Origin: Acidobacteriota bacterium
GTDB taxonomy: Bacteria; Acidobacteriota; Polarisedimenticolia; Polarisedimenticolales; DASRJG01
Assembly (NCBI GenBank): GCA_041500265.1
Contig: JBGQLU010000003.1
Coordinates: forward strand, 1-59,082
DNA length: 59,082 bases
Reading direction: 5' to 3'
The notes below the pieces were generated by a model. It was not told the DNA's origin. It ran no database searches and was given only the letters and a program-made list of their open reading frames with translations. Shown piece by piece: positions 40,592 to 56,492 of the stretch. Position numbers and translations under genes: made by a program. How positions within the stretch are numbered: position 1 is the stretch's first letter; every line of letters starts with the position of its first letter.

Positions 40592-42046
40592 TCAGCGGTC
40601 ATCTCCGTCCCGTCCTTCGGAGGCGGGTACGGCCGGGGTGACCGGCGTTGCGGTGCCGGTGAGGATCCAGGCCTTCTGGCTGGGCGCGAAGCGCGGCGCC
40701 AGGTAGCCGTCGTTGATCTCGCGGGTGACCGCGAAGCGGTTGAACGAGGTCGCCGGCAGGAATAGCCGGGCGTTGTCGATGAAGCCGTCCGAGGCGCTGT
40801 CCACGTCGCCTTCCACGGCGGAGATCACTCCGTCACCGTTCTGGTCGACGCGATCCACCTCGGCGGCGTACGCATCGAACAGGCGCTGCGGGAAGTCGGT
40901 GCCCGGCTCGAAGGAAGCCAGCCGCTCGAAGACGTCCAGGAAGATCTCGTTCGCGAGGCCGCTCGGGATGAACCGGTTGCGGAACTCCCGCTGCGCGTCG
41001 TCGTCGCCGTCGAACTTGTCGGGATCGCGGGGGAGGAACGGATTGTCCCCGTAGACGACCGGGTTGTTCCGCACGCCCTGCGGACCCGAGCCCGGCACCA
41101 GGCTGGAGATCCGGCCGATGTTCCCCAATTCGAACGTGCCCGGGATTCCGCCCGTGTTCGGGAGCTCGTAGAGGGGAAAGACCCAGTTGGTCGTGTAGTT
41201 GAACTCCCAGTAGCTGTGCACGTCACTCTGCTGCATGGCGTTGTAGGCGCCCATGCTCAGGAAGATCGGCACCGTGTTCCCCTGGATGTCGGGGAAGTGG
41301 TCCGCTTCGCTCGTGAAGCGCGCGGCCTTGCCGTCGGTGGTGAAGACGTGGCCGGCGACGTTGTTGCCGTTGCCGGTGGCCCGGAGCCGGTCGGCGTCCG
41401 CCTGGAGGAGCTTCCCGAACTTCGCATGGCCGTCCTGCCGGGGCGTATCGACGGGCGCGACCTTGAGATCATGGATCATCCACCCCTCGTACCAGCCGCT
41501 CTCGTTGTTGATCACGAAGAGCGGGTCGATGTCGGTGAAGATGTCGATGAAAGCGCGGACGTCGTTGGGATCGGTCGGCAGATCGGGCTTCGGCTCGAGG
41601 GCGAGACGGACGGAGCCGATCGTCGGGATGCCGCATACGCCGCCGGTCGCGGTGAGCTGCACGGCGTCGTTGACCCCAGGGAAGATCGTCGTGAACACGT
41701 TGGGCTCGAACCCGTGCGTGTCGAGGAGGTAGTACTGGAAGAGCAGGCTCTTCTGATCGGCCTCCGCGAAGGTCTGCATCGGGAGAAAGGTGTGGGGGCG
41801 TCCGGCGAGCCGGAGCAGCCGCTCCTTGAGCGGCCGCGGGGCGAGGCGGACGTCGCCGCGCTGCGCGAGCGTCGCCATGTCGGACTGCGCGTGCGGGTTC
41901 GGATGGCACGGCGCCGGGATGACGTCCGTCTGGAGGAGTGAGGCGGCCTGGCCGCTCGCGACCGACCCGGCGAGCGTGACCTTCGCGGCGACGGCCGCGG
42001 CGAACGAAATCTTCGAGATCCAACTCGGTTTCCGATACGTGACCAT
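40592..42046 (-). CDS. Secreted hypothetical protein with EF-hand-like loop
   Basis: Signal-like N-terminus; strong GC3 bias; INNESGWYEGWMIHD, HSYWEFNY, DQNGDGVISAVE; AGGAG RBS. Confidence 0.85.
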   Translation of the reverse strand: MVTYRKPSWISKISFAAAVAAKVTLAGSVASGQAASLLQTDVIPAPCHPNPHAQSDMATLAQRGDVRLAPRPLKERLLRLAGRPHTFLPMQTFAEADQKSLLFQYYLLDTHGFEPNVFTTIFPGVNDAVQLTATGGVCGIPTIGSVRLALEPKPDLPTDPNDVRAFIDIFTDIDPLFVINNESGWYEGWMIHDLKVAPVDTPRQDGHAKFGKLLQADADRLRATGNGNNVAGHVFTTDGKAARFTSEADHFPDIQGNTVPIFLSMGAYNAMQQSDVHSYWEFNYTTNWVFPLYELPNTGGIPGTFELGNIGRISSLVPGSGPQGVRNNPVVYGDNPFLPRDPDKFDGDDDAQREFRNRFIPSGLANEIFLDVFERLASFEPGTDFPQRLFDAYAAEVDRVDQNGDGVISAVEGDVDSASDGFIDNARLFLPATSFNRFAVTREINDGYLAPRFAPSQKAWILTGTATPVTPAVPASEGRDGDDR

Positions 42047-42132
42047 GGGACAGGCTCCTATCGAGAAGAGGTTCCGGGCCGCGCGGCGGGGGGCGCGCGA
42101 GGCTCGATCCCTGCTGGTTCCACCGTGAAGAT

Positions 42133-42471
42133 TCATGCGCCGGACGAGCCTCCCTGCTGTTTCGGGGCCGCGCGGTCGCTCGTGTCCCCGTTCGTGCGGA
42201 TCACGGCGATCCCGTCCTGCTCGAGCATGTCGGCGATCAGCGGCGAGCACCCGGTGATCCCGACGCCGGCCCGGGCGAGCCGGCCGAGCGCCTCCTTGCC
42301 GGAACGTGCGATGAGGGCCACGCCGGAGAGATCGAGCACGACCGGCCGATCGGAGCGCATCGCCTCCAAGCACACCCGCTCGAGCATGTCGGCCCATGCG
42401 GCGACGATGCGTCCCTCGAGGATCAGGACGACCCGTTGCTGGTCGGCGTCATTGCGAACGATGCGAAGCAT
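42133..42471 (-). CDS. STAS-like small protein
   Basis: MLRI..., LILEGRI...W...LE..C, VVLDLSGV..I...G...L..L...G. Confidence 0.75.
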   Translation of the reverse strand: MLRIVRNDADQQRVVLILEGRIVAAWADMLERVCLEAMRSDRPVVLDLSGVALIARSGKEALGRLARAGVGITGCSPLIADMLEQDGIAVIRTNGDTSDRAAPKQQGGSSGA

Positions 42472-42484
42472 GCCGCTCGACATC

Positions 42485-42499
42485 GCAACACACGTGCCA
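42485..42499 (-). promoter_or_regulatory. Consensus sigma54 promoter
   Basis: TGGCAC-GTGTG-TTGC, a perfect consensus, directly downstream of a bEBP gene. Confidence 0.85.
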
Positions 42500-42633: not shown

Positions 42634-44718
<2,085 letters not shown>

Positions 44719-45012
44719 GAGAACACCCGTCCCGCGGATCGACGTCCGACCTGCCGAGAGAGGCGAATGCGGACGTCCGGTCACGTCGGCGGCGCGCACT
44801 ATAGCGCCGACGCGGCGGCGCGTCCTAATGGCTCTCCCAGGCCGTCTCGGAGTGCTTCAATTTCAACGACTTAGGCGGCTCCGGACGGATCCGCGGAACA
44901 AGAACACGACAGCCGCCGCCGCCGTGGTCGGTGAACCGAGGTGTGGATCGTGTCACCGTGCGCCCACACCGTCGCTTCGGCCCGTTCTTACGCGTCCTGC
45001 TAGTCTTCCTCG

Positions 45013-46089
45013 ATGCTCCCGCGATGCGCTCGCCGCGGCCTCGCCGCGATGCTCCTCACCTGCGGCGGCGCGGTCGCGGCCTCGGCGGCCGGAGCCGCGA
45101 ACGGGCTGGGCGGCTGGATCGTTCCGTGGGACTTCGACGCAGGGATGCAAAGCGTCGCGCGGGGTCGGGGCCTGTTCGACGACGTCTTCCTCTTCGCGGC
45201 GCGCTTGGACCGTTCGGGAAAGGTCGTACTGGACGAGCGCAAAGGGCACTGGCCCGATGCCGTGCGGGACGCGCGCGCGGCCGGAGCCCGAGTTTGGCTC
45301 ACCGTGGTCAACGACGTCGTGGCCGCGGGGCCCTCGCGATCGATCCTCAAGGACTCGAACCTGGTCCACGAGCTTCTCGCGAGCCCCGAGCGGAGCGCCG
45401 CCCATCGCGCCGACATCGTGAACGCGGCGACCCAGCTCGGAGTCGAAGGCGTCGATCTGGATTACGAGAACCTCCCCAGGGGAGAACGCGAACGGTTCTC
45501 CTCCTTCGTCCGCGCGCTGGCCGAAGATCTGCACGCTCGCGGGCTGGCGCTGTCGGTGACCGTGCAGCCGAAGACCGCCGAGAGCACAGCCACCGGCCCC
45601 GGAGCGATGGATTGGAGCGCCTTGTGCTCGGCCGCGGATCGGATTCAAGTGATGCTCTACAACGAGCACAATGCGTCGACCGGACCCGGGCCGGTTGCCG
45701 GCATCGATTGGGTCCGGCGCGTCGCCGACTTCGGTTTGAAGACCTGCCCCGCGAAGTCGCTCGTCCCCGTTCTCAAGGTGTCGGGCATGGATTGGGGGCC
45801 CGACCGCTCCGACTGGCTGTCTTACCCGGAAGTGTCGTCGATCATCGAGCGCGTCCGGCCGAAGATCCACCGCGAGCGCGAGAACCGCGTCCCCTGGTTC
45901 GCCTATCGCGGCGCCGGGGGGCGCCACGTCGTCTACTTCGAGGACGCAGAGAGCCTCGCCGCGAAGTCCGGAGTCTTGAGAAGCCGCGGCCTTTCGAGAA
46001 TCGTGCTCTGGTCCCTCGGAAGCGAGGATCCCGTCGGCCCGGCGCGCATCGCGGCGACCTCGGGGAACGACGGCGGTCAGAATCGGTAG
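45013..46089 (+). CDS. Secreted GH18 family glycoside hydrolase
   Basis: Signal peptide; EGVDLDYE (DxDxE intact), VMLYNEH...PGPVA...W, VYFEDAES, LWSLG.ED. Confidence 0.88.
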   Translation: MLPRCARRGLAAMLLTCGGAVAASAAGAANGLGGWIVPWDFDAGMQSVARGRGLFDDVFLFAARLDRSGKVVLDERKGHWPDAVRDARAAGARVWLTVVNDVVAAGPSRSILKDSNLVHELLASPERSAAHRADIVNAATQLGVEGVDLDYENLPRGERERFSSFVRALAEDLHARGLALSVTVQPKTAESTATGPGAMDWSALCSAADRIQVMLYNEHNASTGPGPVAGIDWVRRVADFGLKTCPAKSLVPVLKVSGMDWGPDRSDWLSYPEVSSIIERVRPKIHRERENRVPWFAYRGAGGRHVVYFEDAESLAAKSGVLRSRGLSRIVLWSLGSEDPVGPARIAATSGNDGGQNR

Positions 46090-49000
46090 GCGAACGAAGC
46101 GTTGACCGCGGTCCGATGATACGTGGGGGTCTGCCCATACTCCCCCGTCACCATGGTGCGCCACCGCGTCGTCCAATCCTGCGTCCAGGCGATTCGCGCG
46201 CGCCCGACCACGCGCGAGCCTGCTTGATCGTCTCGAGAGGGCCCGACTCCCACCTCCGCGTCGATCGAGGCTCCCGTGGCGAAGGACCGCACCACGCGGG
46301 TGAGGGCCAGCAGCGTGACGAGACGCTGGGGCGCGTAGTAGCCGACGGCGCTGAACTGACTGTCGCCGGCCTCGAATCGACCGCCGACCTCCACCAGGCG
46401 CCTCGCCCCGAGCCCCACGGTTCCGTCCGCCCACGCGTAGAGCAACCGGTTGCCGTCGGTCAGGTCGTAATACGAGACGTGGGCGCGTGTCCGCCAGGTC
46501 CGGGTCAGGAACTCGTGGCCCGCATCGCATCCGCGCTTCAGGATGCTGTCCCGCAGCGCTCCGACCGTGTCCTCGTCGAGAACGCCACAGGCGAGGTCGA
46601 AGCGATTTCGGTCGACGCCGCCCCGAAGGCTCGCCTCGCCGTTCAGGCTCCGCACGCCGTCGTTCAGGCTCCGGTACCGGAGCCAGCCGAGGACCGACAG
46701 CCCTTTCGGCGCGTCCCAGGCCCCTCCGAGCGTCGCCTGGCCGCCCTCGAGTGCTGCGAACGCGCGGTCGGTGAACCGCGCCGAGCCGAGCTCGCCCCAC
46801 AGTCGGAACGGCGCCGAAAACGACACGCGCCCGGCGGCTCCGACCTCCACCGTGCCGCGTCCGTCGGAATCCGAGGAGCCGTGCGTCTCGAGGCCCGCCT
46901 GAGGATCGGTCTCCCAGGCGAGCTCACGTCCGACCCGCTTCCGGAAGGGGTCGACACGCCCCCATTCGGGGCCCGTCGGCAGCGCCGCGTAGACGCGCTC
47001 GGCGTCGCGCATCCTGCCCTGGTCTTGAAGGGAGCGGGAGAGGAAGAACCCCGCCTCCGGACCGGTTCTCTCGTCGGCGGCGATCATCGAGCGAAACGCG
47101 GCCTCCGCGCGGCGTGGACGGGCGTTCCAGAGATCCCAACGTGCGGCATCGAGCATGGCTTCCGCGCGAGGCGCCTCGATCGCGAGATGCGCCATGAGCC
47201 GCTCGCCGTTCCACTCGCGAGGAACGTTGAAGCGACGCAGGAGGAGCGGTCCCTGTGCCGCGGCGGCGACGACGTTGTACCCGGAATCGTCCTGCACGAA
47301 GCCGTAACGGTAGTATCTGCGGAACGCGTCCTCGTTGGCTGCGAGCGCGCCGGGGTCGTTCCCGCCGTGCAGCTGCCCCATCTCGGAGAACGGAAAGGCG
47401 TACCCCACGACGGATTGACCCGGCAAGTTGTCGCCGAGCCGCCGCCGGCACTCCAGATAGTCGCCATCCACCCGGGCGACGTACTCGTCGTGGGTCTCGA
47501 GCCGCCCCGCGTCCGCGAGCCACTCGCGGTTAACGAGGAACTCGGCCAGACCGCCGGCCTCGTCCACCGGAATGGGATCGTGGGCCAGGTGGCCGTGGCT
47601 CTGGAAGTCCCAGCGGCCGGTCGAGCGGAGCTCCCGGAGCCGTGTCCAGTCGGCGTTGAAGGCGCTTTCATCGGCGATCCTCACCGTCGGCACGAACATC
47701 GTCGCCTTCATGTTGAGGCGGGCGAGCACGGGATCGGCAAGCTGGAACGAGTCGGCGCGCGCGTCGTCGAAGGTCACCAGAACCGGCTTCCGCGGAAACG
47801 GCGCCGCTCCCGAGCGCATCGCGTCGAGGTCGCTGACGGTGATCGTCGTGAAGCCCGCAGCCGCCAACGCCTCCATCTGCGATACGAACCGATCGAGCGG
47901 CATGCTCAGGCTCCGCGGGTGTTCGGCCAGCCCGTGGTAGAGGAGGATCGGGACATCCACGCGGCCCGCGGGGGTACTCAGGATGCTCGCACGGCGAGCG
48001 GCGGCCTCCGCGCGTCGCCCCGTTTCTTCGAAGATCGACGCTTCCTCCAGGGCACGCTCGTGGGGATCGAGGAACCCGTCACGGTCCGAGCGCAGGAGCG
48101 CGAGCGCTTCGGAGTACCGCCCCAACGCGTACAACGCATGCACCTCCCCGATGAACACCGTGCGATTCCGGCCCAGGTCCTTGCGGAGCCGCCGGTACTC
48201 GTCGAGCGCTTCTCCCGGCCGATGGAGGGTGAGGTGGACGTCCGCGAGCAGGAAGCGGAGCTGCGGGGAATCGGGATGGGAGCGCATGGCCTCTTCGAGC
48301 ACGCGCTCGGCGAGGCGTGGTCGATCGGTCGCTTCGTAGGTTTCGACGAGCGTGACCCAGTAGGCCACGCGCTGCGGGTAGCGCGTGACGAGCTCTCGGT
48401 ACCAGCGCCCGGTCGACGCGTCGTTCCTCTGCACCTGGGCGTCCTCCGCGAGGAGGCGCAGGACGGGCTCCGAGGCGCGGTTCCCGGCGACGAGATCGCG
48501 CGCCGCATTGATCGCGTCGTCGTACTCTCCCGTCTCGTACATGGATCGGATCCAGTAATGGGTTGCGCGCGGGAGCTCCGATCCCATGTCGATGATCTTG
48601 CGCCACTGGGCCTCGGAGGCTTTGAAGTCTAGGCTTCTCCACAAGGCCTCCCCGTAAAGAGTCTGCACGGTGAGATCGTCGGGGTGCTGTTCCACCAGCG
48701 TCTCGGCGAGCGTTCTCGCGCTGCGGTACTTGCCGTCGGCGAGGTACGCCCTCGTCAGGAGGACGTTGGGGCCCTTCGTGTCCGTCGGATCGAACGCCAG
48801 AGCGAGGAGGGCCTGCTCGATGGCCGCGGCCGGCGTGCCGCGCTGAAGCTCGAGTCGCGCCAGGAGCAGACGGGGCTCCGCCAGCTCGGAATACGCGGCC
48901 GCGTAGCCGGTCCAAACCCGGCGCACTCCGGCCCAGTCGGCCTGCCTCCATAGGGTCCATCCGTAGTCGCGGAGCGCGGCGCGGTTGTTCGGATCCGCGT

Positions 49001-50222
49001 CGAGCGCCTTTCGATAGAACACGCTCGCGGCCGCATCGTCTCCCGCTCGATAGGCCGCGCCCCCTCGCGCCGCCGCGAGACGTGCCAGGGCCACACCCGA
49101 GGCCTCCCGGCGTCCGGGCTCGCGGGATCGGGCGTCGAAGAAGCGCTCGCCTGCATCGAGCGCATCGTTCCGGATGAACAGGTCGGCGCACCGGACGAAC
49201 TCGGAAGGATCGACCGGGCCGGTCGAGAACAGGTCCTCGAGCGACGCTGTCGCACCGGAAACGTCACCGCCGTCGAGTGCCAGGGCGGCCAGAGCGTAGA
49301 GCGCCGCGGCCTTGTTCGAAGTCGTCTTGGCCGATCGCGTGTACGCCTCGCGCGCTTCCGTGAGCCGGCCCGCGTCTCGCAAGGCGTCCCCGATGGCTTG
49401 CCAAAGAGCGGCCGGCTCGGGAGCGCCCCGATCGACCGCCAGGCGCCATTCCGTTACGGCGTCGGCATTCGCCCCCGCCTTGCGAAGCGCCCACCCGAGG
49501 TTGACCCGGTACACGATCTTGGCGGGATCGTAGCGGACGGCCTCGCGATAGTCGTCCCGGGCGGTATCCCACGCTTCGGCCCGATACGCCTCGTCTCCCT
49601 TCGTCGCCACGACGCGGGCGAGGCGCCTGGCGATCGCTCCGTCGCTGTCGCGGACGCGCGCCAGCGCTTCGCGAAGGACCGCTTCGGCGGCATCGAGCCG
49701 CCCGCGCTTCTCCTCCAGGTCGGAGAGCCTCGAGATCGCGCCGATGTCCCCGGGAAGGCGCTCCAGGATGGCGCGGTACTGCGAGGCCGCCGGATCGAGC
49801 CGGCCGAGCTGCTCGTACGCCCGACCGAGCCGCAACCGGATCTCCGGTTGTCGCGAGTTCGCGGCGAGACTTCGCTCGTACGCGATCGAGGCCTCGCGCC
49901 AGGAGCCGGCATCCAGCCGGACGTCGCCGACGGCGTTCCACGCGTCGACGTTGTCCGGCTCGAGCTTCAGGACCGTGTCCCAGACGCGAAACGCCTCGCG
50001 GTCGTTGCCGAGCCTGTGGTGCGCCCAGCCCAGGTTCTCCCAGGCTCGGATCAGAGCCGGGTCCAGATCCACGGCTTTTTGGAAGCTGAGGAGCGCGCCG
50101 CGAAAGTCCCCCGCCTTGTAGAGCCTCACGCCGTCGTCGAGCGGCCCTTGGCCCGGCGAGCGTGCCGCCGCCGGCAGCGCGGACGCTAAAACGATCGCGG
50201 CGATCGTGAGGGCGTGCCTCAC
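46077..50222 (-). CDS. TPR-repeat / CE4 polysaccharide deacetylase / probable outer-membrane beta-barrel fusion
   Basis: Signal peptide; more than 12 TPR-like repeats; VPILLYHG, VTFDDA, SHGHLAH, AFPF, LRRF (PgaB/NodB-type); amphipathic beta-strand C-terminus ending in YRF. GTGA coupling to the upstream gene. Confidence 0.88.
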   Translation of the reverse strand: MRHALTIAAIVLASALPAAARSPGQGPLDDGVRLYKAGDFRGALLSFQKAVDLDPALIRAWENLGWAHHRLGNDREAFRVWDTVLKLEPDNVDAWNAVGDVRLDAGSWREASIAYERSLAANSRQPEIRLRLGRAYEQLGRLDPAASQYRAILERLPGDIGAISRLSDLEEKRGRLDAAEAVLREALARVRDSDGAIARRLARVVATKGDEAYRAEAWDTARDDYREAVRYDPAKIVYRVNLGWALRKAGANADAVTEWRLAVDRGAPEPAALWQAIGDALRDAGRLTEAREAYTRSAKTTSNKAAALYALAALALDGGDVSGATASLEDLFSTGPVDPSEFVRCADLFIRNDALDAGERFFDARSREPGRREASGVALARLAAARGGAAYRAGDDAAASVFYRKALDADPNNRAALRDYGWTLWRQADWAGVRRVWTGYAAAYSELAEPRLLLARLELQRGTPAAAIEQALLALAFDPTDTKGPNVLLTRAYLADGKYRSARTLAETLVEQHPDDLTVQTLYGEALWRSLDFKASEAQWRKIIDMGSELPRATHYWIRSMYETGEYDDAINAARDLVAGNRASEPVLRLLAEDAQVQRNDASTGRWYRELVTRYPQRVAYWVTLVETYEATDRPRLAERVLEEAMRSHPDSPQLRFLLADVHLTLHRPGEALDEYRRLRKDLGRNRTVFIGEVHALYALGRYSEALALLRSDRDGFLDPHERALEEASIFEETGRRAEAAARRASILSTPAGRVDVPILLYHGLAEHPRSLSMPLDRFVSQMEALAAAGFTTITVSDLDAMRSGAAPFPRKPVLVTFDDARADSFQLADPVLARLNMKATMFVPTVRIADESAFNADWTRLRELRSTGRWDFQSHGHLAHDPIPVDEAGGLAEFLVNREWLADAGRLETHDEYVARVDGDYLECRRRLGDNLPGQSVVGYAFPFSEMGQLHGGNDPGALAANEDAFRRYYRYGFVQDDSGYNVVAAAAQGPLLLRRFNVPREWNGERLMAHLAIEAPRAEAMLDAARWDLWNARPRRAEAAFRSMIAADERTGPEAGFFLSRSLQDQGRMRDAERVYAALPTGPEWGRVDPFRKRVGRELAWETDPQAGLETHGSSDSDGRGTVEVGAAGRVSFSAPFRLWGELGSARFTDRAFAALEGGQATLGGAWDAPKGLSVLGWLRYRSLNDGVRSLNGEASLRGGVDRNRFDLACGVLDEDTVGALRDSILKRGCDAGHEFLTRTWRTRAHVSYYDLTDGNRLLYAWADGTVGLGARRLVEVGGRFEAGDSQFSAVGYYAPQRLVTLLALTRVVRSFATGASIDAEVGVGPSRDDQAGSRVVGRARIAWTQDWTTRWRTMVTGEYGQTPTYHRTAVNASFAYRF

Positions 50223-51970
50223 CTCGTCACCAACAGGCGCATCCCCGATCGGCGGAGCTCCTTCTCCACCGCCCGGGCCGCTTGCGACCAGCCCTCCCCC
50301 GATGCGCGCGGGACAGCTTCGAGTCCGAGCGACAGGCCGTCGAAGCGCTGCTCGGCGGCGCGCCGCGCCAGCATGGACGCCCACTCATCGGGGTGACCGG
50401 GCGCCGCCCCGCGGGCCGCGACGCTCGGCACCACGTCCCACGCGAACTTCCGGGACAGGATGCGTAGGAGGTCGCGATCGATCGGTCGCTCCCGCACGGT
50501 GCCCCCCTCGACCGTGGCCCAAGGCGGGCTGATCGCGGCGATCGAATCCGCATCGCGGGCCAAGATCCGGATCGCCGCCGCATCGGGCGACGCCGGAATC
50601 GACCGAACGCGATACGGGTAGGCCGAGAAGCGCAAGTCGGAAACCGAGAGAGTTGCCGCTCCCGCGCGGCTGTAGGCGACCAGTCCGATCTTCCCGCTCC
50701 ACCTCGCCGGGAGGGCGATCGGCTCGTTCGAGACCGGAGTCCCGTCCCAGATCGCCCGGATTCCTCGACCTCGCTTGATGAGGCCCAACGTGTGCGACCG
50801 CGCTTTCGTCGCGGCGTCGGGCCGGCGAGCCAGGACTTCGGGCGCCTGTCCACGCTCGCGAACCTGGACGTAGAGGATCCCGTCGGCGCCTCCGATGCGC
50901 CACTCGCGGCCACGCGTCTCGTCGGGTTGGACGACCCAGAACTCCCCGTCGCCGAGCGAGACGCGCGCCGCGAGCTCCCAATCGTCCACCCACCTCGCGG
51001 CCGGGATCCAGACCTCGGCTCGCGGCGTTCCACTAAGGCGAAGCGAGGCACCGTCGGGAGTAACGGTTCCCTCTCCTTGAACCCAACGATCTTCGACGGG
51101 GACCGGCTCGCCCGTTGGAGAGCGGGGCGGTGGAGAGGCGACGGCACGGTCCAATCGAGCCAACAACTCCGGCGGGCTCCACGATGGCGCGACGCGCAAT
51201 CGCGGAACGCGGAAGGGACTCGCGTCGGTGGGAGCGGCGCCGGCGACGTCGTCCTCGAAGCCGAGCCAGGGGAACGCCTCGCGCGGTGCGTCCATGCATC
51301 CGAGCGCGGCCAGCGGACCATCGCCGCGGGGGGCCCACGCGAGGACTTCGGGACGCCCCAGCCTCGACGCGATCCGCCGCGCCCCGGGAGGCTCGGGCGG
51401 AAGCACGCACGGCTCGGCCCCGGGAGCGGCGTCCGGCGGGTCGCCCGAAGCGATTTCCCAGAGCCCGCTCTGGACCATGCGCTGAAGGCGGTCCCAGAAG
51501 AGAAACGAGACGTCGCGGCTTTCCTGGCGCTCGGTCCGGAGGAACATCACGGCGGGCCAGTGAAGTTCGCGGAGGACAGGGTCGGCGGCCTCGTAAGTGC
51601 TCAGGTACCCTTCGTCGAACGTGAGCAGGAAGGGCTTGGCCGGCAGCGGCACGCCGTGAGCGTAGGCCGCGCGGACCTCAACGAGGGTGACCGCCTGCCA
51701 GCCCGCGGCCGCGAGGGCGCGTAGAGCCTTTCGTAGTCCGATCCGGTCGACGTGGCCGGCGTCCGGCATCCTCACGACGCGGTCAAAGGCAAGAGCGACG
51801 AGGCGGCCGCCCTCGTCCGGCCCCGCGGCTCGGCGGGCGGCGAGCTCGACGCGACGGTTGAGCCAGGCGCTCGTTCCGGCCCACAACACGGCTCCCGCGA
51901 CCAGCGTCGCGATCCAGGTTCTGCGGTCGCGAACGAACGTCCGCGACTCGAAGACGCTCCCTCGGCTCAT
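50219..51970 (-). CDS. Membrane-anchored protein with degenerate CE4 deacetylase, central beta domain and partial degenerate GH18 domain
   Basis: N-terminal TM; LLTFDEGY, WPAVMF, WEIASGD (no His pair); C-terminal AISPPW...FDGLSLGLE. Confidence 0.8.
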   Translation of the reverse strand: MSRGSVFESRTFVRDRRTWIATLVAGAVLWAGTSAWLNRRVELAARRAAGPDEGGRLVALAFDRVVRMPDAGHVDRIGLRKALRALAAAGWQAVTLVEVRAAYAHGVPLPAKPFLLTFDEGYLSTYEAADPVLRELHWPAVMFLRTERQESRDVSFLFWDRLQRMVQSGLWEIASGDPPDAAPGAEPCVLPPEPPGARRIASRLGRPEVLAWAPRGDGPLAALGCMDAPREAFPWLGFEDDVAGAAPTDASPFRVPRLRVAPSWSPPELLARLDRAVASPPPRSPTGEPVPVEDRWVQGEGTVTPDGASLRLSGTPRAEVWIPAARWVDDWELAARVSLGDGEFWVVQPDETRGREWRIGGADGILYVQVRERGQAPEVLARRPDAATKARSHTLGLIKRGRGIRAIWDGTPVSNEPIALPARWSGKIGLVAYSRAGAATLSVSDLRFSAYPYRVRSIPASPDAAAIRILARDADSIAAISPPWATVEGGTVRERPIDRDLLRILSRKFAWDVVPSVAARGAAPGHPDEWASMLARRAAEQRFDGLSLGLEAVPRASGEGWSQAARAVEKELRRSGMRLLVTR

Positions 51971-52000
51971 CGATCGTCTCGCGGTCGCGTCGCAAGCCTC

Positions 52001-53677
52001 CTACCGCGTTCCCCAGTGGTTGCGCCGCACGGTCGCGAGCGCGTAGTAGGTCTGCCACACGAGGACCACCATGTAGAAGAGACTGAACGCGATGCCGTAG
52101 ATCCACATGCCGCTCTTGTGCCGGACGAGGTAAACGAGTCCGTAGAGCAGGGCCATCAGGAGCGTCCCGTAGGCGTACAGATACGAGAAAGCGCCGAACC
52201 CGAACATGGGGAGCACCAGGGCGATGAAGACGACCGCAGGCGAGATGAACGGGAAGATGACCCCGAGGTAGAAATAGAACGCGGCGAGCGGGTGGCGCTT
52301 CCACATGAAGGTCGAGGCCAGAAGGCTCTCCCGGATCCACGACTTCTTCCAGCGGAGCTGCTGCCGGAAGAACTGCCCGAGCGTGGACGGCACGATCGTC
52401 GCGCAGATCGCGCTGGCGTCGTAGAGGACCCGTCGCCTGCGAAGCATGAAATTCGTCAGGCTGCGATCGTCCCCGAACGTCGCCGGCGTACCCAAGAACT
52501 CCTGCTCGAGCCACGCGTCGAGGACCTCCATGACGTAGGCCCGCCGATACGCGGCGAGACAGCCGGAGCAGCAGGTGACCGTGTCGAAGAGGGACTCCGC
52601 GGACTTCACGATGCGGAACGCGACGTAATAGCGAACCTCCTGCATCTTCGTAAGGAGGTTGTCCCCGGCGTTGGCGACCGTACCGTGCCCGCAGACCGCG
52701 CCGACCTCCGGGTTCGCGAATCCCTGAACGATGCGTGCGAAGGCGTCCCGGCGGACGAAGCTGTCGGAATCGACGTAGATCAGGATGTCGCCGGTCGCCC
52801 GCCGCGCCGCGGCGGCCATCCCGTGGCGCTTGCCTCGGTTCGTCTCGAACCGCACCAGCTCCAGATCCGGGTGCCTCTCGCGAGTTCTCTCCATCTCGGC
52901 CCAGGTGCCGTCGGTCGAGCCGTCGTCGACCACGATCACCTGCATCAGCTCCGGGGGATAGTCGGAGCGGTAGATGCACTCGAGCGTCTCCCGGATCGCT
53001 CGTTCTTCGTTCTTGCAAGAGATCGCGACCGTGATCTTGGGGCGCAGGCCTTCGTCGCGTGGGGGGGTGTACAAGCAAGCCAGCGCGATGCGCGAGAGGA
53101 TGTAGCCGGAGATCAGGAGGCTGTAAAGGTTGACGATCGGGTGATACCAGAAATAGTAGAGATTGTTCCCGCGCAGCCACACGACATCGATCGCGGTCGC
53201 GGCGATCAGCGCCAGGCCGATCCACGGAAGCGCGACGTCGAACAGCGCCAGCGCCTTGGAACCGCGGTCGGTCGCGAGGACGGCCCCGTAGGCGTAGGGG
53301 TGATCCGGGGAATTCGAGTCGGGAGGGACGGCCCGCACGACGCGCGCCATCACGCTGTCGAGAGCGCGCAGCTTCCGGGGCATCGCATTGCGGACGGCAA
53401 GGCTCGGAGACCAGGCGAGCCGTACCCATCGACCGACGTCCACCGGCCGGCTCGTGCGCAGCTTCACGCCGTCTTCGCCCAGGTCGGTTGCGATCCCGGT
53501 GCCGCTCTCGCCCCGCGGGAGGCTCCAATTCGGCCGGAAGGACAGAGGCACCTCGAGCGGTTGCCGGCGGTGGCGCCGTCGTTCCGGCGGCTCGGCGGCG
53601 CGATCCGAAGTTACCTCCGCCCGCGCGTCTATGAACGGCGCTGGGCGCATCGGTCGGCTGGCCCCTCCCTCTCTCAT
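52001..53677 (-). CDS. PilZ-domain-fused GT2 processive synthase (hyaluronan synthase/NodC-like)
   Basis: ERRRHRR and DLGEDG (PilZ); two TMs; DDGSTD, GKRH, VDSDS, CCSGCLAAYR, EQEFLG...TFGDDRSLTN, QQLRWKKSW; C-terminal TMs. Start may be 53650. Confidence 0.9.
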   Translation of the reverse strand: MREGGASRPMRPAPFIDARAEVTSDRAAEPPERRRHRRQPLEVPLSFRPNWSLPRGESGTGIATDLGEDGVKLRTSRPVDVGRWVRLAWSPSLAVRNAMPRKLRALDSVMARVVRAVPPDSNSPDHPYAYGAVLATDRGSKALALFDVALPWIGLALIAATAIDVVWLRGNNLYYFWYHPIVNLYSLLISGYILSRIALACLYTPPRDEGLRPKITVAISCKNEERAIRETLECIYRSDYPPELMQVIVVDDGSTDGTWAEMERTRERHPDLELVRFETNRGKRHGMAAAARRATGDILIYVDSDSFVRRDAFARIVQGFANPEVGAVCGHGTVANAGDNLLTKMQEVRYYVAFRIVKSAESLFDTVTCCSGCLAAYRRAYVMEVLDAWLEQEFLGTPATFGDDRSLTNFMLRRRRVLYDASAICATIVPSTLGQFFRQQLRWKKSWIRESLLASTFMWKRHPLAAFYFYLGVIFPFISPAVVFIALVLPMFGFGAFSYLYAYGTLLMALLYGLVYLVRHKSGMWIYGIAFSLFYMVVLVWQTYYALATVRRNHWGTR

Positions 53678-53837
53678 GAATGCGTGCTATCGAATGAATC
53701 TACCTTGTTCCTCTCTCCCCCGCCCTACTCCGTGTCGAAACCCATTCGCAAAACGCACCGCGAATGTCTCGTATGCCGAACGTCCAGAAAATGACGACAC
53801 CATTGCGCGGTTTGTGACATCACGGTATTTCTGCAGC

Positions 53838-56492
53838 ATGCGCCCAACCCTGGTCGCTTGCGTCCTGTCGGTCCTCACATTCGTCGCGCTCCCCGCGTCG
53901 GGCCAGGCACTGCCTCCGGGGTTCCAGGATTCCGTCGTCCTCAGCGGTCTCACGCTGCCGATGGCCGTCCGCTTCGCGCCGGACGGCCGGATCTTCGTCG
54001 CGGAGAAGAGCGGCCTGATCAAAGTCTTCGACTCCCTGCAGGATCCGACCCCGACCGTCTTCGCCGATCTTCGCGTCGAGGTGATGGACTACTGGGATCG
54101 GGGACTCCTGGGACTGGCGATCGATCCGAACTTTCCGTCCCAGCCTTATGTGTACGTTTCTTATACGTACGACTTCGACCCGGCCACCCCGCAGATCCCC
54201 CCGCCCCGTTGGGGCGATCAGTGCCCGACGCCGCCGGGCCCGAACGACGACGGCTGTGTGGTCACGGGGCGCGTATCGCGCCTGAAGATCAACCCGGACG
54301 ACACGCAGAACGGCCCGGAACAAGTCCTCCTCGGGAACAACTGGTGCCAGCAGTTCCCGTCCCACTCGTTGGGCGCGATCGACTTCGGACCGGAGGGCGC
54401 GCTTTACGTAAGCGCGGGGGAAGGAGCCAGCTTCCGTCTCGTGGACTACGGGCAGAAAGGCGGGACCCTCGGAGCGCCCCCTCCGGTGCCCTCGAACCCG
54501 TGCGGAGATCCGCCCACCGGACGCGGCGGAACTCAAACGGCTCCTTCGGGCGAAGGCGGGGCACTACGCTCGCAGGACTATCGAACGACGTCGGACTCGC
54601 TGTCGTGGGACGGGTCGATGCTGCGCGTCGACCCGGTGACGGGGGTCGGATGGCCGGGAAACCCCAACTCGGATCGCACCGTCGCATTCGGCTTCCGGAA
54701 CCCGTTCCGATGGACGTTCCGGCCGGGGACAGCCGAGGTCTGGCTCGGCGACGTGGGATGGGACACCTGGGAAGAGATCAACCGCCTTACCGCAATCCCG
54801 GGACCGTCGGCGGCCAACTTCGGCTGGCCCTGCTACGAAGGCGCCCCGCGCCAGCCGAGCTACGAGAACGCCGGCCTCACCCTTTGCCAGACACTCTACG
54901 GGCAGGGGCCGTCGGCGGTCTTAGCACCGTACTTCGCCTATCAGCACTACCAGAAGATCGATCCGAACGAGACCTGCAGTAACGCGAACTCGTCGATTAC
55001 GGGGCTCGTCTTCTATCCCGCGGGGGGGTATCCGTCATCCTACGAGGATGCCCTCTTCTTCGCCGACCACTCTCGCAATTGCATGTGGGTCATGACCAAG
55101 GGAGCCAACGGACTCCCGGACCCGGCAACCGTGCACGTCTTCGAGAACGGCGCGTCCGAGCCGGTGGACCTTCAGCGCGGACCTGGGGGGGACGTCTTCT
55201 ACGTCGATCACGAGGGGGGGGCGATCCACCGCATCTCCTACACCTCGGGGAACACGCCGCCGACCGCCGTCGCCGATGCGAGCCCGCGAAGCGGCGGTGT
55301 CCCCCTGACCGTCCAGTTCGATGGGTCGCTCTCGAGCGATCCGGATCCGGGCGCGACGCTCACGTACGCCTGGGACCTGGACGGCGACGGGCTCTTCAAC
55401 GACGCGTTCGTGGTCCGGCCGATCCACACCTACACGGTCGCCGGACAGATCACCGCCCGCTTGCGGGTGACCGATGACAAGGGCGCCTCGTCGATCGACG
55501 GCGTCGTCGTGAGCCCCGGGAATCACGCGCCCCTCGCGACCGTCACGGCGCCGCCGCCCACCCTCACCTGGGCCGTCGGCGATGCCATCGTCTATTCCGG
55601 AAAGGGGCAAGACACCGAAGACGGAGCGATGCCCGCCTCGTCGATGCACTGGGACATCGTCATGCACCACTGTCCGAGCGGGACTCCCGACTGCCACGAG
55701 CACCTCATCGAATCGCACGACGGAACCTCGGGAGGCACGTTCGTCGCCCCGGACCACGATTACTACTCGTATCTCGAGTTCCGGCTCACGGTGACCGATC
55801 TCGGCGGGCTCACGGGCGTCAATTCGGCGGACATCGACCCGAAGACGAGCGTCACCACGTTCGCCTCGAGCCCAGCCGGCGCGACCATCTCCGTAGGCTT
55901 CCGCACGGCGCCGGCGCCGTTTTCGCAGACTCTGATCGTGAACTCGACGAACTCCGTCTCCGCGGCAGGTTTGCAGACGTTGGCCGGCCTCCCGTCGTAC
56001 TGGAGCTCCTGGTCGGACGGCGGCGCCCGCCTCCACGACATCGTGGCGGGCGCGTCCGCCGCGACGTTGACGGCGAGCTACCTGGTCTGTGGAACCGTCG
56101 AGATATGCGGGGACGGCCGGGACAACGACTGCGACGGCGTCGTCGACAACGGCGCGATCCCCGGCCCGATGCTCTCGTTCCACGTCGACCACGACAAGAT
56201 GTTCTGGACGGCGCTTCCGGGAGCCCAGACGTACGACGTCGTGCGCGGAAGCCTCAACGGCCTGAGGAACAGCCACGGCGACTTCGCCGCCTACACCCAG
56301 GAGTGCCTCGACAACAACGACCCGGGAACGGCTCTGATCTACCCTTCGAACCCGCCCGCGTCCGGGAGCGTGCAATGGTACATGGTCCGGGCGAACAACT
56401 GCGCCGGAGCCGGCACGTGGAACGACGGGTCGCCGACGCAAGTCGCGGATCGCGATCCGGGAATCAATGCCTCGAGCCACACCTGCCCGTGA
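53838..56492 (+). CDS. PQQ-dependent glucose/sorbosone dehydrogenase family protein with PKD, MopE-like and C-terminal domains
   Basis: Signal peptide; FAPDGRIFVAEK.G, DRGLLGLA.DP.F, GFRNPFR, DVGW.TWEEIN, NFGWPCYEG; PKD (LTVQFDGS.SSDPD...YAWDLDGDG); EICGDGRDNDCDG. Confidence 0.9.
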   Translation: MRPTLVACVLSVLTFVALPASGQALPPGFQDSVVLSGLTLPMAVRFAPDGRIFVAEKSGLIKVFDSLQDPTPTVFADLRVEVMDYWDRGLLGLAIDPNFPSQPYVYVSYTYDFDPATPQIPPPRWGDQCPTPPGPNDDGCVVTGRVSRLKINPDDTQNGPEQVLLGNNWCQQFPSHSLGAIDFGPEGALYVSAGEGASFRLVDYGQKGGTLGAPPPVPSNPCGDPPTGRGGTQTAPSGEGGALRSQDYRTTSDSLSWDGSMLRVDPVTGVGWPGNPNSDRTVAFGFRNPFRWTFRPGTAEVWLGDVGWDTWEEINRLTAIPGPSAANFGWPCYEGAPRQPSYENAGLTLCQTLYGQGPSAVLAPYFAYQHYQKIDPNETCSNANSSITGLVFYPAGGYPSSYEDALFFADHSRNCMWVMTKGANGLPDPATVHVFENGASEPVDLQRGPGGDVFYVDHEGGAIHRISYTSGNTPPTAVADASPRSGGVPLTVQFDGSLSSDPDPGATLTYAWDLDGDGLFNDAFVVRPIHTYTVAGQITARLRVTDDKGASSIDGVVVSPGNHAPLATVTAPPPTLTWAVGDAIVYSGKGQDTEDGAMPASSMHWDIVMHHCPSGTPDCHEHLIESHDGTSGGTFVAPDHDYYSYLEFRLTVTDLGGLTGVNSADIDPKTSVTTFASSPAGATISVGFRTAPAPFSQTLIVNSTNSVSAAGLQTLAGLPSYWSSWSDGGARLHDIVAGASAATLTASYLVCGTVEICGDGRDNDCDGVVDNGAIPGPMLSFHVDHDKMFWTALPGAQTYDVVRGSLNGLRNSHGDFAAYTQECLDNNDPGTALIYPSNPPASGSVQWYMVRANNCAGAGTWNDGSPTQVADRDPGINASSHTCP

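Follow-up and report, generated by a model that had tools for sequence, protein, structure and literature searches.

The analysis reported here concerns four adjacent genes at positions 45,013 to 53,677 of a 59,082-nucleotide stretch of DNA (hereafter the window), which makes up positions 1 to 59,082 of contig JBGQLU010000003.1 in the genome assembly GCA_041500265.1 of an Acidobacteriota bacterium. Its main outcome is that these genes quite likely encode a secretion system, gated by cyclic di-GMP (c-di-GMP), for a partly deacetylated polymer of N-acetylhexosamine (HexNAc), since the list of parts that they supply equals that of a synthase-dependent system. We consider it somewhat likely that the module as a whole is a synthase-dependent exopolysaccharide secretion system of uncharacterised type working through the mechanism proposed below, and we lean slightly towards a beta-1,4-linked, chitin- or chitosan-like polymer. 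Few synthase-dependent systems are understood (those for cellulose, alginate, poly-N-acetylglucosamine (PNAG), Pel and a few other polymers), and much of the present understanding of biofilm matrices and of control by c-di-GMP is built on them. The module consists of the following genes and domains, where CE4 stands for carbohydrate esterase family 4, GH18 for glycoside hydrolase family 18 and TPR for tetratricopeptide repeat.

52001..53677, minus strand: gene 1, glycosyltransferase family 2 (GT2) synthase, open reading frame (ORF) of 558 residues
53276..53584, minus strand: PilZ-like beta-barrel of the synthase (residues about 32-134), with R34xxxR38 and D65-L-G-E-D-G70
50219..51970, minus strand: gene 2, partner protein of 583 residues, with an N-terminal tail and transmembrane (TM) helix (10-37), a dead CE4 domain (51-276), a beta-sandwich resembling carbohydrate-binding module family 66 (CBM66) and lectins (280-453) and a C-terminal alpha/beta piece (455-583)
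46077..50222, minus strand: gene 3, exporter, 1381 residues counted from the GTG at 50222
47973..50138, minus strand: TPR scaffold of the exporter (residues about 29-750; TPR_19, TPR_16, TPR_14 and others)
47124..47921, minus strand: CE4 de-N-acetylase domain of the exporter (residues about 768-1033)
46080..47099, minus strand: likely C-terminal outer-membrane barrel, PgaA-like, the last 340 residues of the exporter
45013..46089, plus strand: gene 4, GH18 hydrolase, 358 residues, convergent with gene 3

The layout agrees with a preliminary description of this DNA: genes 1 and 2 are separated by 30 nt, the TGA of gene 2 overlaps the start codon of gene 3 (GTG at 50222) as GTGA, and the TAG of the GH18 gene (46087-46089) produces a 13-nt convergent overlap with the end of gene 3. 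In a window with 65-75% G+C, filtering by third-position G+C content leaves one clear set of genes between 45 and 54 kb, and the four ORFs have coding-type values of 0.82-0.88. Two start codons call for comment. The longest ORF of gene 3 reaches up to 50384, and the GTG at 50222 is preferred because the protein then begins with a signal peptide, MRHALTIAAIVLASALPAAA; the extension up to 50384 is probably unused. For the synthase, the codon of Met10 (53650) appears to be the more likely true start, given the GGAGG-like stretch upstream of it and a database representative (P0005) that is 549 residues long. The profile searches that the preliminary description had proposed return GT2 families and Chitin_synth_2 for gene 1, a partial CE4 domain for gene 2, TPR and CE4 for gene 3 and GH18 for gene 4.

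The case for a functional module begins with its conservation. Scans of genomes and metagenomes with the synthase gave 92 loci, on which the four proteins were placed by tblastn, and co-occurrence was counted over those loci whose synthase is at least 50% identical to this one and belongs to its own clade of the tree described below. An orthologue of gene 2 lies directly after the synthase in all 25 loci whose flanking DNA extends for about 0.6 kb or more, a TPR-CE4-barrel gene follows in 18 of the 18 loci with at least 2.5 kb, and a GH18 gene is found within the flank in 14 of the 15 loci that extend at least 1 kb beyond gene 3. The four genes do, then, keep company in other genomes, as their description as one system demanded. 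Two pairs of these loci (L001/L018 and L007/L008) are near-duplicates, and the number of independent cases is thus slightly smaller. The exporter orthologues that adjoin the synthase at other loci are 33-59% identical to gene 3, and the GH18 gene is co-oriented with the rest in Holophaga foetida. The four-gene loci form a single clade of 18 rows (SH-aLRT 99). The loci counted come from Acidobacteriota, Nitrospirota, a 'delta proteobacterium', metagenome-assembled genomes (MAGs) of Gammaproteobacteria and H. foetida DSM 6591; further sources of synthase homologues are Polarisedimenticolaceae, Manganitrophaceae, Nitrospira and Nitrospinaceae. By its nearest named homologues, the organism of the window is itself probably an acidobacterium of Polarisedimenticolia type. 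An arrangement that recurs on independent contigs of several phyla is far beyond chance.

The module is also found in altered form. A plasmid of Paenibacillus cellulositrophicus KACC 16577 (L094, 4586-12216) carries co-oriented genes, first for a separate CE4 protein and then for a PilZ-GT2 synthase of 625 residues that ends in WGTRE..., a partner with a dead CE4 domain (589 residues; hhalign probability 98.3%; SFEDG in motif 1 and no His motif) and a GH18 enzyme, and no TPR protein or porin was found in that locus. At 40-55% identity, synthases of the family mostly still have a CE4 or TPR gene beside them, but neither the partner nor the GH18 gene. As a separate observation, DNA near-identical to positions 44900-53900 of the window (63-92% of sampled words) is present in sediment metagenomes of four other studies, which suggests a repeated occurrence in sediments of the organism or, at the least, of the locus.

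Gene 1 matches GT2 families and Chitin_synth_2 in Pfam, and its best curated NCBIfam model is NodC (TIGR04242), with 189.8 bits against an equivalog cut-off of 550, followed at a distance by PgaC_IcaA (TIGR03937), with 129 bits against a cut-off of 422.3. Alignments point in the same direction: the BLASTP match to Sinorhizobium meliloti NodC (167 bits) runs from residue 182 through the last residue and that to HasA of pXO1 covers residues 214-558, through the very C-terminus, at 31% identity, whereas that to Escherichia coli PgaC (116 bits) is confined to the glycosyltransferase domain (212-462). The C-terminal motif of the synthase is WGTR; NodC has DWLSR at the equivalent place and PgaC and IcaA have W(V/S)SPDRG. 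Among proteins of solved structure, the closest by sequence (phmmer) are the hyaluronan synthases (HAS) of Chlorella virus and Xenopus, with E values of 5e-31 and identities of 20-24%. A model of the synthase built with AlphaFold (AF2) from 44 homologues (pLDDT 88.2) predicts a beta-barrel (39-134), two TM helices, a GT-A domain, interface helices, three further TM helices and the WGTR end; the five predicted TM helices, together with the interface helices, are those of an inner-membrane processive glycosyltransferase with a TM channel of its own. The 12 top matches to this model in Foldseek are all hyaluronan synthases (E 6.6e-21 to 2.5e-16, over some 450-490 columns that include the TM parts; TM-score of about 0.6 for the best fold match, PDB entries 7sp7 and 8smp having been compared), and after them come BcsA (E 2.8e-14) and chitin synthases. 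Both the motifs and the fold of the synthase are therefore HAS-like, and its description as class I HAS/NodC-like agrees with the best-scoring curated model and with the structural comparison.

The wider family, most proteins of which end exactly at WGTR, was compared in 67 members, and none of them departs from D252, D303xD305, GDDR (402-405), QQxRW (439-443), W555 or R558. A quick maximum-likelihood tree was computed from the last 400 residues, rooted on PgaC/IcaA and including no hyaluronan synthase; in it, both PgaC/IcaA and NodC fall outside the whole 67-member family, on branches of 2.4 and 4.2, and the program warns that these long branches meet. Since the scores are far below the cut-offs, the C-terminus differs from that of PgaC and both enzymes lie outside the family in the tree, the synthase is, on sequence grounds, neither PgaC nor NodC; it is a member of a large, separate family of NodC/HAS-like enzymes. 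Grouping with PgaC/IcaA, an outcome that would have spoken against the preliminary description, is not what was found.

Some members of this wider family deserve a mention in their own right. They come in forms of about 430-450 residues without the N-terminal domain and of about 525-560 residues with it (loci L013-L092), and the synthase ORFs of L046, L048, L051 and L056 bear long N-terminal extensions. One member matches a phosphoglucomutase/phosphomannomutase domain (E 1.1e-39) and may be either a fusion or an over-extended ORF. In a Phycisphaerales MAG (L010, 5267-6853) the synthase homologue has one in-frame stop, which could reflect a sequencing error, a pseudogene or recoding.

The N-terminal domain of the synthase is the candidate c-di-GMP receptor. 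A Pfam scan of the whole protein at E 0.01 did not report PilZ, and the beta-barrel of the model (strands 39-134) carries the PilZ signature RxxxR and a form of [D/N]xSxxG with Gly for Ser, of which R34, R38 and the last residue of the second motif (G70) are invariant in 44 homologues. The PilZ model PF07238 matches 15 of those 44 homologues at E values up to 0.01 (best 7.7e-10) and 29 of the 67 members of the wider family (best 7.9e-11), it is among the precomputed domains of 22 of the 120 homologues listed, and in the Paenibacillus homologue its score (27.4 bits) is over the cut-off. With 13 GGDEF and 10 PilZ matches, the 75%-complete MAG has the signalling background for such a receptor. 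Binding of c-di-GMP by this barrel is inferred from its motifs.

The second gene encodes a protein that had been termed a pseudo-enzyme partner, and for the clade in question the term is correct. Pfam recognises only half of a CE4 domain in it and nothing in its C-terminal half, yet its AF2 model (pLDDT 88.1) has a complete CE4 fold that VIA-align matches to PplD (Z 23.2), the N-terminal domain of PgaB (Z 21.1) and IcaB (Z 20.6). What this fold lacks are the catalytic residues: CE4 motif 1 reads TFDE instead of TFDD, and the stretch that bears the His residues is deleted. Of 24 orthologues, 23 retain the first Asp of TFDD and one retains the second, the remainder having E, H, G or Q in place of the latter; the stretch opposite SHSHNLH of BpsB is missing in 16 of the 24 (this copy among them), reduced in one and present in seven. 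Because the second Asp has been lost and the His motif deleted, the CE4 domain of this clade is, by its motifs, dead and unable to bind the catalytic metal. The beta-sandwich that follows superimposes on CBM66 with a Z score of 17.2 and a root-mean-square deviation of 2.8 over 151 residues. The C-terminal piece, in turn, is probably the remnant of a GH18 domain, judging by its alignment with the GH18 family of the locus around the catalytic strand (hhalign probability 82%, E 1e-5, with GLSLGLE opposite GVDLDYE) and by a profile search of the PDB, which retrieves the GH18 structure 5jh8 at E 0.0069; the look-alikes of residues 280-583 in the Atlas are GH18/YdhD clusters at 0.79-0.80 only, a lead and not evidence. 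Overall, the partner looks like a former deacetylase-hydrolase of a layout comparable to that of PgaB, in which both activities have been lost.

Structure prediction offers an indication of what such a protein might be kept for. When residues 135-558 of the synthase and 1-290 of the partner were modelled together, from self-made unpaired alignments and with a calibration that is only rough, the median ipSAE of three runs was 0.62, against 0.00 for the best of three controls; the mark used is reached by 58 of 80 solved complexes and by two of 110 mismatched pairs. At least 93% of the contacts are common to the runs, with a partner pLDDT of at least 82. The predicted interface brings residues 3-22 and 37 of the partner against 456-465, 410-414 and 171-179 of the synthase, and several of the residues involved are invariant in their own families (F12, D15 and W19 in the partner; W459 and P463 in the synthase). 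The partner is hence predicted to dock on the synthase. A search with the partner profile over 1.84 billion representatives yielded 284 proteins at E values up to 1e-30, many of them about 1,250-1,450 residues long and with the whole profile contained in their N-terminal half. Five of the six that were scanned (P0235, P0240, P0251, P0253 and P0262; 975-1446 residues) have a partner-like N-terminal half followed by TPR repeats; the sixth (P0259) is of the exporter type, with two CE4 stretches, TPR repeats and a weak match to PgaA_barrel (PF21197, 24.6 bits). The partner-TPR fusions may be single polypeptides that run from the inner membrane towards the outer membrane, and the fact that partner and scaffold are fused in other lineages supports a bridging role for the partner.

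In the exporter, three parts follow one another. Its TPR region scores 150.8 bits with the PEP-CTERM model PrsT in NCBIfam and also matches the TPR parts of PgaA and BcsC; the PgaA model itself (TIGR03939) gives 37 bits, confined to this region. The CE4 domain finds its best relatives in the PDB among the PNAG deacetylases BpsB and PgaB (E 4.9e-13). It places TFDD and SHGHLAH opposite TFDD and SHSHNLH of BpsB, so that the catalytic residues are all present, and all 14 exporter orthologues retain TFDDAR and HGxxAH; from these motifs the domain looks catalytically active. For the last 340 residues, comparison with the Atlas gives PgaA_barrel clusters at 0.96-0.98, and the C-terminus aligns end to end with the last 174 residues (634-807) of E. 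coli PgaA (hhalign probability 50.6%, E 1.6e-4). The terminal residue is Phe in all 14 orthologues, and by sequence the exporter likely ends in an outer-membrane barrel.

The fourth gene matches PF00704 at E 4.1e-19, and the closest GH18 enzymes of solved structure are the 'probable chitinase' 5jh8 (1.3e-28), then YdhD and YaaH/SleL. Its catalytic strand reads EGVDLDYE, in agreement with the DxxDxDxE signature; GVDxDYE is found in 13 of 13 diderm copies and GVEIDYE in Paenibacillus. The enzyme looks catalytically active on this basis, and its N-terminus resembles a signal peptide. A modifying enzyme and a hydrolase are thus encoded together with the synthase, as seen in the CE4 motifs and in the presence of GH18 at nearly all loci of the clade.

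Put together, these parts suggest the following mode of action. Binding of c-di-GMP to the N-terminal PilZ domain, through RxxxR and D-x-G-x-x-G, would release the enzyme, probably because the C-terminal WGTR loop comes free, in analogy with the gating loop of BcsA; gating loops exist in both BcsA and hyaluronan synthase. The NodC/HAS-like GT2, whose fold is modelled, would then polymerise UDP-N-acetylglucosamine (UDP-GlcNAc) and thread the chain, most likely beta-1,4-linked, through its own membrane channel. Seated on the synthase by its cytoplasmic tail and TM helix, as the docking prediction has it, the partner would offer three non-catalytic sugar-binding modules to the emerging chain in a BcsB-like hand-over. 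The TPR array of the exporter would hold the chain while the built-in CE4 domain, going by its motifs, removes some of the acetyl groups, and the PgaA-like barrel would release a polymer that by then is partly cationic. Finally, the separately transcribed and presumably exported GH18 enzyme would trim or clear the polymer, a function comparable to those of BcsZ, AlgL, PelA and the C-terminal domain of PgaB.

The nature of the polymer is deduced from the enzymes that would act on it. An N-acetylated sugar is called for because two domains of PgaB-type CE4 demand it. GH18 enzymes require an N-acetyl group beside the bond they cleave and act on beta-1,4 bonds, and the beta-1,4-GlcNAc product is proposed because a GH18 enzyme is present and a UDP-sugar dehydrogenase is not: none is encoded in the four-gene module, and the two copies in the genome lie on contig C1. 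The has locus of pXO1, by contrast, carries a UDP-sugar dehydrogenase beside hasA. In PNAG loci the hydrolase domain of PgaB belongs to GH153, and a GH20 gene is located directly upstream of an icaA-type PNAG synthase on a Staphylococcus cohnii plasmid (L098, 101-2595). In known systems the family of the hydrolase goes with the polymer that is made, and the occurrence of GH18 where PNAG loci have GH153 or GH20 provides a clue to its identity. Of the two products put forward in the preliminary description, chitin/chitosan-like and hyaluronan-like, hyaluronan is the weaker.

The alternative that best withstands this evidence, unlikely as we judge it, is a divergent system for PNAG (beta-1,6-GlcNAc) in which genes 2 and 3 are a rearranged PgaB and PgaA and PilZ takes the place of PgaD as sensor of c-di-GMP. 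Both CE4 domains match PgaB, BpsB or IcaB best, the exporter barrel resembles PgaA, the PgaC_IcaA model still gives 129 bits on the synthase, and pga-like operons without pgaD are described in environmental bacteria in the available part of an operon survey (PMC7112194). Set against this, that score is far from its cut-off of 422.3 and lower than that of NodC, PgaC aligns over the glycosyltransferase domain only and has another C-terminal motif, PgaC/IcaA stand outside the synthase family in the tree, and the hydrolase is neither GH153 nor GH20 but GH18, with the mechanism and the beta-1,4 specificity that this family entails. A somewhat smaller probability is given to a system for hyaluronan or another GlcNAc-containing heteropolymer. 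Class I hyaluronan synthases are the best solved relatives of gene 1 by sequence and by fold, HasA of pXO1 aligns with it through residues 214-558 at 31% identity, and 'hyaluronan synthase' is the automatic name that JGI gives to its homologues. Automatic names, however, are no test; the NodC model scores above the others, a HexNAc homopolymer fits the presence of two CE4 domains and a GH18 enzyme better, and the conserved module has no UDP-glucose dehydrogenase, the copies in the genome being on another contig, unlike the has locus. Least probable of all is that no matrix polymer is made, and that the locus produces NodC-like short chito-oligosaccharides, deacetylated in the manner of NodB and released as signals, or else an envelope, sheath or cyst layer: NodC is the best-scoring curated family, a GT2 gene adjoining a CE4 gene recalls nodBC and the relatives of the GH18 enzyme act on cell-wall material, but a TPR array of 750 residues combined with a likely outer-membrane barrel is the hallmark of polymer export, a very long branch separates NodC from the family, the TM helices of the model form a set like that of HAS and there is no nodA-like acyltransferase.

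Several observations weigh against the secretion of a c-di-GMP-gated, beta-1,4-linked HexNAc polymer and have to be set beside the evidence above. With regard to control, this copy has Gly at the Ser position of [D/N]xSxxG, where many relatives have Ser, and PF07238, run on residues 1-146 only, reaches E 0.0079 and 16.9 bits, below its cut-off of 22.5. With regard to the product, it is heteropolymer synthases that the synthase matches best in fold, the closest counterparts of the CE4 domains and the barrel belong to PNAG machinery (PgaB/BpsB/IcaB and PgaA), which would fit a beta-1,6 product, and the nearest GH18 enzymes include the spore-cortex proteins YdhD and YaaH/SleL, making peptidoglycan-like GlcNAc linkages a possible target. 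The barrel of the exporter obtains no Pfam barrel family in its last 340 residues even at E 10, PF21197 included, and the probability of its hhalign match to PgaA is just 50.6%. One locus of the clade (L003) has no GH18 gene within 3.7 kb, and in 13 of the 14 loci that have one it is convergent and hence not co-transcribed. Within the phylum the system is sporadic, with gene 2 orthologues (E up to 1e-200) in five of 401 genomes, this one included. The synthase-partner complex expresses the confidence of a model based on unpaired alignments and is no measurement, the source MAG is 75% complete, and the entire reading is built on sequence and predicted models of a locus known here by its genes.

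Comparison with established systems helps to delimit what is new. The module resembles PgaABCD of E. coli (L093) in having an inner-membrane GT2 with proposed control by c-di-GMP, a PgaB-type CE4, a TPR exporter with a likely beta-barrel and a glycoside hydrolase, and likely also in its product, a partly deacetylated GlcNAc polymer. It differs from it in that the synthase is NodC/HAS-like and not PgaC, in that c-di-GMP is proposed to act through a fused PilZ domain and not at a PgaC-PgaD interface, and in that no PgaD is apparent among the genes or next to them; moreover, the active-looking CE4 domain sits inside the exporter, flanked by the TPR array and the likely barrel, and is not part of a lipoprotein, there is an additional dead CE4-CBM partner, and a separate GH18 enzyme stands in for the GH153 domain. 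With BcsA-BcsB-BcsC-BcsZ it shares a processive GT2 with a fused PilZ-like domain, a TPR exporter with a likely barrel, a hydrolase predicted to be exported and a membrane-anchored periplasmic partner rich in carbohydrate-binding modules, in the proposed role of BcsB. The PilZ domain of BcsA, however, is at the C-terminus and the one here at the N-terminus, the anchor of the partner is an N-terminal helix and its other parts are dead CE4, CBM66-like and GH18-like, a deacetylase is present, the hydrolase is GH18 and not GH8, and the substrate is almost certainly not UDP-glucose. Class I HAS enzymes (Chlorella virus, Xenopus HAS1) have the same GDDR, QxxRW and near-terminal WGTR motifs, but they lack PilZ and export partners and need UDP-glucuronic acid. 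The NodC/NodB pair (L095, L096) likewise joins a GT2 to a CE4 and, if the deduction made above holds, shares the beta-1,4-GlcNAc chemistry; NodC, on the other hand, makes pentamers that are exported by NodIJ, and it goes without PilZ, TPR-barrel and GH18. Pel (PelA-G) is c-di-GMP-dependent, as is proposed here, with a partly deacetylated HexNAc polymer, the TPR-barrel protein PelB and the deacetylase/hydrolase PelA, and it has a porin-less version in Firmicutes to which the Paenibacillus locus may be compared; its synthase PelF, however, is a GT4 enzyme, its c-di-GMP receptor is PelD and its polymer is alpha-1,4-GalNAc. NfrAB, BgsA and other c-di-GMP-controlled synthases are further analogues. 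Judged by sequence, then, the module would work like Pga and Bcs, but in the curated models its proteins stay below family level for PgaC, NodC, PgaA and PgaB.

A search of the main texts of a mainly open literature returned no description of a PilZ-bearing NodC/HAS-like synthase with CE4, TPR-barrel and GH18, in line with the supposition that no characterised operon has this architecture. In the accessible portions of two PilZ surveys (10.1101/2020.02.11.943704 and 10.1101/814665), glycosyltransferase fusions are named only as cellulose-synthase-like. The operon survey mentioned above contains, in its available part, no GH18, chitin or hyaluronan terms, and its pga-like operons of environmental bacteria might include relatives of the module. 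The cluster of PMC3684757 was discarded as an unrelated Wzx/Wzy and PEP-CTERM cluster on the strength of the sections available. The bacterial chitin synthases of Dickeya, Pectobacterium and others (Goncalves et al. 2016, PMC5122149), for which a chitin exopolysaccharide was proposed and not shown, are alike in being bacterial GT2 enzymes related to chitin synthases; as presented in the excerpts of that study at hand, they are division 1 enzymes of eukaryotic derivation, encoded beside DUF1501/DUF1800 and epimerase genes and without a module of PilZ, CE4, TPR-barrel or GH18.

If the proposed reading is true, the module adds to the synthase-dependent systems one that differs from the others in synthase lineage, in hydrolase family and probably in its polymer, along with two unusual design features: a deacetylase placed inside the exporter and a partner built of retired enzyme domains. 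To our knowledge, no chitin- or chitosan-like polymer is known as a secreted bacterial matrix. It is possible, though we stop short of calling it probable, that the module represents the first secretion system of bacteria for a genuine chitin/chitosan-type (beta-1,4-GlcNAc/GlcN) exopolysaccharide, controlled by PilZ through a WGTR loop, with a doubly dead CE4-GH18 co-polymerase that bridges synthase and exporter, widespread yet overlooked in Acidobacteriota, Nitrospirota and proteobacteria of sediment and soil and porin-less in Firmicutes. A module of this kind would be at work in environmental phyla that are hard to study and that shape sediment and soil aggregates, and a bacterial route to chitosan-like material would be of practical interest. 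Its two cultured carriers, H. foetida DSM 6591 and P. cellulositrophicus KACC 16577, make the proposal directly testable.

The genes on either side of the module remain to be considered. Next to it (42634-44799, minus strand) lies the gene of a GAF-GAF-sigma54 activator, and control of the operon by sigma-54 was considered and rejected on three grounds: the only perfect -24/-12 match of the window, TGGCACGTGTGTTGC at 42485-42499, comes after the activator gene and precedes another gene, the total number of -24/-12 matches (31) is below the mean of shuffled sequences (36), and the activator was not found beside the module at other loci. The perfect site is situated just upstream of the gene of a 601-residue protein (40592-42397, minus strand) that has no Pfam family, and activator and 601-residue protein look like a self-contained pair of regulator and target, unrelated to the polysaccharide module. 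On the other side, divergent from the synthase, a large gene (53388-56492, plus strand) encodes a GSDH/PKD-domain protein; a homologue with 49% identity is located on the same side of the synthase in one further locus (L004, 1594-4389) and not at the others.

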